Shown piece after piece: positions 408-1,031 of a stretch of 1,031 nucleotides of DNA (position 1 is its first letter; every line of letters starts with the position of its first letter). The stretch is taken from the NCBI RefSeq assembly GCF_003334335.1, contig NZ_QOWQ01000129.1. One strand, 5' to 3'. The notes below the pieces were generated by a model. The model was not told where the DNA came from and did no database searches. It worked only from the letters and a program-made list of their open reading frames with translations. The DNA is from Escherichia coli. Its GTDB lineage: Bacteria; Pseudomonadota; Gammaproteobacteria; Enterobacterales; Enterobacteriaceae. Made by a program: the position numbers and the translations under genes.

Positions 408-1031
408 CTAAATACGCACTTTAAGATAAGTCAGCCCCGGATGAAGCCAGTAAGCCGGCACTTTTTTAAAGGGTGGAGTATTAAAATCACGAAGAAGAGC
501 CTCCCGCACAATTGCATCCTTATCAGCACCACTGGCCAGCGCTTCAATCTCAGCGGCTACCTGAAGATATCCCATGCAACGGCCAACGCGCTTCATCAGC
601 CCCTGCTTTTTATTGTTCTTCAGGTAATCAATGGCAAATTCAATGAGCTCCTCACTGTGCTGGTGCGATGGAGGTGTTACTTTCCCATTTTCTGAGATGG
701 TTATTTTCCCGGCATCACCGGATACAACAAAGGATGGCCGGTTACACTCCCATTCCAGCTCACTGAAATTATCATTATGAATACTGAAACACTCTGCGAG
801 ATTTCTGCTCATCACTTTCCGACAATAATCGTCAAACGCAGCAAACTGCTCATCGCGGCGTTTTTCTTCAGGCCGCTGAAGATGCTCTTTCAACAGTGAA
901 GCGCAGCTTAGATGCGCCGCGCGATCAAGAATAGTTTCTTTCATTTCATCTGCTGCAAGCACCTCATTTTTTGTTGGGGTGCTTTTTTTCAATTCAGCGA
1001 TATAGCACTCCAGTTTTTCAATGCGTGATTC
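408..1031 (-). CDS. Hypothetical protein of unknown function, soluble, immediately upstream of the endolysin; 5' end probably beyond the window
   Basis: Minus-strand reading frame open for 208 codons from the window edge (1031) to a TAG stop (complement of 408..410). The ORF track starts it at a TTG (complement of 990..992), but the 13 codons upstream (ESRIEKLECYIAE) contain no stop, and the only GGAG upstream of that TTG is ~15 nt away, too far for a good Shine-Dalgarno. The true start is therefore probably outside the window. A stop-free run this long in ~45% GC DNA is unlikely by chance, and it is co-oriented with the endolysin. No hydrophobic stretch long enough for a transmembrane helix, so it is not a holin. 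Five Cys in the 194 residues from the TTG, none in CxxC pairs. I do not recognise the family. Confidence 0.65.
   Translation of the reverse strand, partial: ESRIEKLECYIAELKKSTPTKNEVLAADEMKETILDRAAHLSCASLLKEHLQRPEEKRRDEQFAAFDDYCRKVMSRNLAECFSIHNDNFSELEWECNRPSFVVSGDAGKITISENGKVTPPSHQHSEELIEFAIDYLKNNKKQGLMKRVGRCMGYLQVAAEIEALASGADKDAIVREALLRDFNTPPFKKVPAYWLHPGLTYLKVRI

Follow-up and report, generated by a model that had tools for sequence, protein, structure and literature searches.

The window, a 1,031-nt stretch of Escherichia coli DNA, raises the question of what kind of protein is encoded directly upstream of a phage endolysin gene by a long open reading frame (ORF) that a first-pass annotation had placed in the slot of the holin and could match to no family. 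The ORF occupies 408..1031 on the minus strand, with 207 open codons (1031..411) that lead to a TAG stop (410-408); its 5′ end runs past the window edge, in keeping with the at least 208 codons originally noted. A Kyte-Doolittle scan found no transmembrane segment or signal peptide in the ORF product. Its highest 19-residue mean hydropathy is only 0.75, which argues against any transmembrane segment, compared with 1.83 for the holin of the cassette and 1.74 for the N-terminus of the lysozyme. The product is thus soluble, as first proposed, and we rule out that it is itself a holin or pinholin, a role that belongs to a 71-aa gene product upstream. The best proxy for the gene beyond position 1031 is the IMG/VR contig L012, which matches the window without gaps over all 1,031 nt at 99.5% identity and carries an intact gene of 329 aa. 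Judging from such relatives, the window copy would have the same length of 329 aa, with its remaining 5′ part, 122 codons that include a DUF1327 domain, lying past position 1031 and outside the window.

Downstream of the ORF, a 36-nt spacer (372..407, minus strand) with no sense-strand promoter-like or terminator-like site leads to a SAR-type lysozyme gene, R (GH24, RrrQ-like), whose first 123 codons occupy 1..371 on the minus strand, from an ATG at 371 to the point where the gene leaves the window at position 1. The encoded protein is 88% identical to RrrQ of E. coli K-12. Its N-terminus, MNTKIKYGLSAAVLALIAAGAPAP, is Gly/Ala-rich and weakly hydrophobic, and the motif E-x8-D-x5-T can be read straight from the sequence as EGNHTTAYRDGAGIWT; both are features of SAR endolysins, namely of R21-type lysozymes. 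PF00959 is found on a 177-aa homologue, and the corresponding loci of AR_0017 and phage Stx2_95 carry a lysozyme or endolysin annotation. The downstream gene is reasonably read as a SAR endolysin, as the first-pass annotation had it.

The idea that the ORF fills the slot of the holin, by contrast, did not survive comparison with related loci. A 71-residue class II (S21-like) holin, PF04971, is encoded directly upstream in every relative examined, and intact copies of the gene start 3–7 nt beyond it (80 of 80 IMG/VR loci, Stx2_95 and E. coli genomes). Lysozyme follows directly in 79 of the 80 IMG/VR loci, at a spacing of 37–43 nt, and the remaining contig (L055) ends short of it. Near-identical DNA to the window occurs in E. 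coli prophages and in the Stx2a phage Stx2_95, where the ORF makes up the final two-thirds of a CDS of 329 aa, itself starting 4 nt past the stop of the 71-aa class II holin. The junction in L012 reads GGGGAGAG-TAA-AGCG-ATG, with the Shine-Dalgarno sequence of the gene situated within the last holin codons. We can therefore rule out that the ORF replaces the holin; the holin lies upstream, and the gene is inserted between S and R. The same order is found in the essQ-ydfR-rrrQ genes of the K-12 prophage Qin, to which the window cassette is orthologous, with identities of 79% for the holin, 88% for the lysozyme and 47% for YdfR (residues 1–74).

The identity of the gene is largely explained by this relationship: it is a YdfR-family gene, already catalogued, in its long form and at the position where such genes are normally found. 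The ORF is 94% identical to a 329-aa RefSeq protein named 'YdfR family protein', and PHROG 1085, a family of unknown function, matches the window fragment over profile positions 124–296 (E = 1.1e-105) and the full protein end to end, over positions 1–296 (E = 3.3e-179). The DUF1327/YdfR domain (PF07041) is found with E = 1.3e-44 at residues 1–112 only of the Stx2_95 protein, which is 95% identical to that of the window. The L012 gene shares this N-terminus, and the window copy would carry the same domain outside the window. DUF1327 is defined as a single-domain family of ~100–115 residues, and the present protein departs from it in having 329 aa, with a linker and a 115-aa domain beyond. A known DUF between S and R of Qin-like prophages, named in advance as the finding that would tell against novelty, was thus encountered for the N-terminal third of the protein. 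The first-pass description of an unrecognised family holds for the part inside the window, which has no match in Pfam, NCBIfam, PADLOC or the PDB, and fails for the whole protein, which is long known as ydfR/DUF1327 and PHROG 1085 and is not a new kind of system. NCBIfam and PADLOC (at E ≤ 0.1) gave no match with either the full protein or the window fragment, and a PDB sequence search with the full protein gave none. Among the PHROGs, all matches to the E. coli forms at E ≤ 0.01 are unannotated families, and a permissive scan to E 10 gave no credible match to an annotated family, antiholin or other; of the few annotated matches, all weak, none concerns lysis (hemolysin, head maturation protease, tape measure). 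Our survey of the literature on ydfR, DUF1327, essQ/rrrQ and lysis-cassette morons returned only a 2026 paper on an RNase E interaction (PMC13232886) and incidental mentions.

K-12 YdfR (b1555, Qin, DUF1327) is among the closest known relatives. Its gene occupies the equivalent slot, flanked by those for a class II holin of 71 aa and a lysozyme of 177 aa; the protein is soluble, shares the RefSeq family name and is 47% identical over the 74 N-terminal residues. Unlike the 329-aa window-type protein, however, it has only 103 aa, consisting of the domain and a short helical tail, and lacks the 115-aa domain that sits in the window. Closer in architecture are gp05 (orf5, YP_794052.1) of Stx2 phage 86 and BCI50300.1 of Stx2_95, which share the gene order S-gene-R, have C-terminal domains 83–94% identical to that of the window and are true orthologues in sequenced Stx phages, although the phage 86 protein is a 268-aa form with a shorter and different linker. 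The annotation of these two proteins goes no further than hypothetical or YdfR family. The RefSeq entry for phage 86 gp05 (L093:1043-1849) also bears the note 'Homologous to COG0188: Type IIA topoisomerase', which none of our searches backs and which looks like a legacy annotation error.

The AlphaFold (AF2) model of the full-length protein has a confident N-terminal domain of three strands and one helix, a helical linker (residues 72–215) with pLDDT below 50 and a confident C-terminal domain (residues 222–329). The ORF in the window is the linker and C-terminal domain of this two-domain cytoplasmic YdfR-family protein of lambdoid prophages. The low-confidence linker (756..1031, minus strand) varies by indels in the family alignment and includes the segment EEKRRDEQFAAFDDYCRKVMSRNLAECF. 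It also holds a short charged, heptad-like helix, ESRIEKLECYIAELKK (~984-1031, minus strand), which the first-pass annotation had singled out as a charged, possibly coiled-coil region; it is indeed predicted to be helical, at a pLDDT below 50. It is followed by an optional insert of ~35 aa, KKSTPTKNEVLAADEMKETILDRAAHLSCAS… (~879-983, minus strand), that marks the 329-aa as opposed to the 296-aa form. The same insert recurs in a very divergent 184-aa relative, P0126 (…KKSTFQKNGVPASDKLKETIPDRASCLSCAP…), and so appears to be an old optional module and not a recent insertion. Several cysteines had also been remarked upon. We counted six in the ORF, only one of which, in the GRCMG motif, is semi-conserved across the family (C/S/A), and a conserved metal-binding or disulfide motif is thereby ruled out.

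The C-terminal domain is a 115-aa orphan module (EWECNRPSF...LTYLKVRI; 411..755, minus strand) with a predicted fold that no domain database describes. Modelled alone, it reached a pLDDT of 89 and a pTM of 0.81; in this model a meander of three strands leads into three long helices, and a short helix closes the C-terminus. Its invariant or near-invariant pattern (H, GR.M, LQ.AA.IE, PP.K, W, PG, YL) corresponds to residues H247, G272-R273, M275, L278-Q279, A281-A282, I284-E285, P309, K311, W317, P320-G321 and Y324-L325. Pfam gave no match to any of 28 diverse sequences of the domain. A profile search of the PDB did no better than E = 0.043, for a PhoU homologue in which no single stretch passed by itself, and Foldseek with the full model returned only marginal PDB matches (best E 0.17, ~40 columns each, to curved beta-sheet and NTF2-like designs). 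Fold neighbours in the PDB are generic helical bundles only. Against AFDB50, Foldseek found the family itself and nothing further, in the form of 'phage protein' entries of E. coli, Shigella and Salmonella, and with these results we dropped assignment to any known fold. When 1.84 billion representative proteins were searched exhaustively with HMMER, only 22 representatives came up, and a profile search named E. coli, Shigella and Salmonella only, the Salmonella relatives being conserved at 30–45% identity. The domain is therefore without sequence or fold relatives beyond its own small enterobacterial prophage family.

Selection acts on this domain. Comparison of the window with Stx2_95 gave a pN/pS of 0.29, which divides into 0.17 for the last 108 codons and 0.66 for the first 100, so that the linker region is the least constrained part of the ORF (~0.66). 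Over 26 unique alleles of the C-terminal domain pN/pS is 0.21, and none of the 26 has an internal stop. The domain is under purifying selection and the gene is real and conserved; an annotation artefact is ruled out by these ratios. The ORF is moreover conserved from E. coli to Salmonella, which goes beyond chance.

The family is modular. Approximately 41 of the 80 IMG/VR loci encode the fusion of DUF1327, linker and C-terminal domain (296, 297 or 329 aa), and ~29 of 80 encode a stand-alone protein of 185 or 186 aa in a cassette that has no DUF1327 domain at all; the 185-aa forms open with an equivalent heptad helix, MNHEEMNQRFSRLENEIAELNKK. Other genomes have a split arrangement, with a stand-alone form of 213 aa right after the holin and then a separate 75-aa DUF1327 gene. 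In a further variant, P0110 (305 aa, 275 contigs), DUF1327 and the same linker are joined to a different C-terminus of ~110 aa (…SANSEILDNFLKGTHLASDCF…FFLKVER), for which Pfam likewise gave no match. The variant suggests that domains are exchanged behind a YdfR module that stays constant.

A search of 5426 complete E. coli genomes recovered DNA of the C-terminal domain in 777 of them, while the window as a whole is matched by 4184, mostly via its lysozyme part. Five of 50,697 phage records carry the gene, all of them Stx2 phages. Only lambdoid prophages of E. coli, Shigella and Salmonella have members of the family, which stands beside pinholin/SAR-lysozyme cassettes in every context examined. 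Since most E. coli genomes have the same holin and lysozyme genes with no YdfR-family gene, and since frameshifts are frequent, the gene is accessory and dispensable for lysis. In Salmonella, the two-domain gene is found between Q, with hicAB antisense, and the holin, that is, upstream of S and not in the S-R slot; some copies have other small genes and terminator-like hairpins nearby, and all are close to an R21-like SAR lysozyme and a class II holin. In three Salmonella enterica prophages (L003, L005 and L095), a hicA/hicB toxin-antitoxin pair runs antisense between Q and the first late genes, and the YdfR-like gene follows it, ahead of the holin and with terminator-like hairpins on its flanks. 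This placement looks more like that of movable cargo than of a fixed part of the cassette.

Consensus scans of the window and of Stx2_95 found no sense-strand promoter-like or terminator-like site between S and R. Taken with the 4-nt junction to the holin gene, this suggests that the gene is co-transcribed with the lysis genes from the late promoter and probably translated in a coupled manner. Judged by its sequence context, the protein would be made only as lytic growth ends, when the Q-dependent late transcript also yields the lysis proteins. Classic morons have a promoter and a terminator of their own and are expressed in the lysogen. The suggestion that this gene is a moron can be upheld in so far as it is a soluble accessory gene within a lambdoid lysis cassette, but in E. 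coli it does not form an autonomous unit, given the missing promoter and terminator and a Shine-Dalgarno sequence that lies in the holin gene.

As to what such a protein does, K-12 YdfR provides the only experimental lead. Its residues 1–72 bind the catalytic N-terminal half of RNase E, as found by bacterial two-hybrid and pull-down, and RNA co-purifies with it (PMC13232886). Its overproduction led to very little change in the transcriptome (PMC13232886), which we count against the reading preferred below. RNase E and RNA binding have been reported for the short YdfR only (PMC13232886), and may be extended to the long form by homology of the N-terminal domain.

The reading we prefer, and to which we give about even chances, is that of a modular cytoplasmic late accessory binding protein that adjusts host RNA turnover or the lysis schedule. 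The N-terminal YdfR domain would act as a docking module, by homology to the RNase E-binding part of K-12 YdfR; the short heptad helix would oligomerise the protein, leaving the conserved C-terminal domain to engage a second partner. In the final minutes of infection, such a protein would modify host RNA turnover, or else when or how efficiently lysis occurs. Within this binding-protein reading, we weight the RNase E and the lysis-timing variants roughly equally, and both low. That the protein works as a modular binder and not as an enzyme we propose with low confidence. Having no transmembrane segment or signal peptide, and only generic helical bundles as neighbours of its modelled fold, it is cytoplasmic and probably non-enzymatic; a catalytic or ligand pocket would, however, account just as well for the invariant polar residues (H, R, Q, E, K, W, Y). 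Fusion of the C-terminal domain to the YdfR module suggests that the two work jointly, and the ~29 of 80 loci that have the C-terminal domain with no DUF1327 indicate, against this reading, that it does not depend on the RNase E-binding module. In short, the protein is most likely cytoplasmic, made late and dispensable.

Phage modulators of RNase E are known from T4 (Srd), T7 (gp0.7) and phiKZ (Dip), and act early or in the middle of infection. As K-12 YdfR binds the catalytic half of RNase E (PMC13232886), a functional analogy to these proteins is possible, although we detected no homology, and the window-type protein is predicted to be late.

Among the alternatives, the one that fares best is a dedicated regulator of lysis timing, in which the coiled coil and C-terminal domain would work from the cytoplasm as a soluble antiholin-like factor, either on the pinholin, e.g. 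through its charged C-terminal tail, or by influencing SAR-endolysin supply. We consider this somewhat unlikely. It gains from the constancy of the surroundings, since in every context examined the neighbours of the gene are a holin of class II and a SAR-type lysozyme (GH24), in two cassette lineages and in two positions (S-R in E. coli, upstream of S in Salmonella), and from the close junction described above, with the start 4 nt past the holin stop and the Shine-Dalgarno sequence within the holin gene. T4 RIII and P1 LydB are small, soluble and dispensable cytoplasmic antiholins encoded with lysis genes, and the window-type protein, which is cytoplasmic and dispensable as well, could be a functional analogue of them; it has, however, no credible match to an annotated PHROG, antiholin or other, even at the permissive threshold. 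Moreover, S21-type pinholins supply an antiholin of their own by a dual start, and an M1/M4 pair is seen in the adjacent holin. The Salmonella loci also weaken the case, in that terminator-like hairpins and other genes separate the gene from the holin, and the interval between Q and S is a general hot spot for cargo, which makes adjacency weak evidence.

A bolder reading would have the C-terminal domain be an undescribed module of pinholin/SAR-endolysin phages, including Stx phages, that tunes the end of infection from the cytoplasm, through action on the lysis clock itself or, if tethered to RNase E, through the stability of late transcripts. We regard this as unlikely. Were it correct, action on late transcripts through an RNase E tether might affect the timing or amount of Shiga-toxin release. 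The lysis cassette is carried by many pathogenic E. coli prophages, including Stx2-converting phages, in which lysis timing governs toxin release and phage yield. A conserved, selected protein that is predicted to be made late from such a cassette is thus a reasonable target for deletion. We see no sign of an unexpected mechanism, and do not regard the gene as a surprising discovery.

That the gene is cargo of benefit to the lysogen, a moron in function that serves anti-phage defence, superinfection exclusion or virulence and is merely parked in the late operon, appears improbable. Like stx, bor, nanS-p and lom, the late-operon morons of lambdoid phages, it is an accessory and patchy gene in the stretch from Q to lysis, differing from them in that the E. 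coli YdfR-family gene has no promoter or terminator and is apparently translationally coupled to the holin. Its patchiness among otherwise near-identical cassettes, the company of stx, nanS-p, ompC and tolA-like cargo in the same late-operon stretch, the terminator-like hairpins flanking the Salmonella copies and the shuffling of domains among family members would all fit a cargo gene. With no promoter-like site, however, little expression is to be expected in a repressed prophage; PADLOC gave no match, and the frequent frameshifts in resident prophages oppose selection in the lysogen. AR_0017 is a further case: downstream of the antiterminator gene quuD, where Stx phages carry stx, it has an ompC porin gene and a truncated DNA methylase (L001:1373-4153), and the same interval holds tRNA-Ile, tRNA-Arg and a tolA-like gene as further late-operon cargo.

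Disrupted copies of the gene make up ~10 of the 80 IMG/VR loci. In AR_0017, the closest complete genome (L001:8001-9030), a 1-nt deletion at window position 916, where the window copy is intact, breaks the gene in two, leaving a 'YdfR pseudogene' and an ORF of 161 aa, and three IMG/VR contigs (L046-L048) also have a 1-nt gap. An ST131 chromosome (L010) has a truncated YdfR pseudogene, and its C-terminal domain DNA was left unannotated by PGAP. It is nevertheless very improbable that the gene is a decaying, non-functional remnant left open by chance in the window, for although these closest complete genomes are disrupted, with a PGAP pseudogene or an unannotated C-terminal part, as are about 12% of the IMG/VR copies, the 26 alleles keep a pN/pS of 0.21 with zero internal stops, the AF2-confident domain is common to E. 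coli and Salmonella, and two viable Stx2 phages, 86 and Stx2_95, carry an intact gene.

Two features of the opposite strand complete the description of the window. Positions 957-984 of the plus strand form a 10-pair terminator-like hairpin, with TTTTTCAATT after it and a T-run to ~992; it is antisense to the gene, inside its coding region, and is also present in Stx2_95. It is probably a chance structure or a by-product of the coding sequence. Two antisense ORFs, at 258-695 (145 aa) and 34-411 (125 aa) on the plus strand, overlap both genes and are also open in AR_0017 (L001) and L012. They give no sign of coding and are likely to be shadow ORFs of the sense frames.
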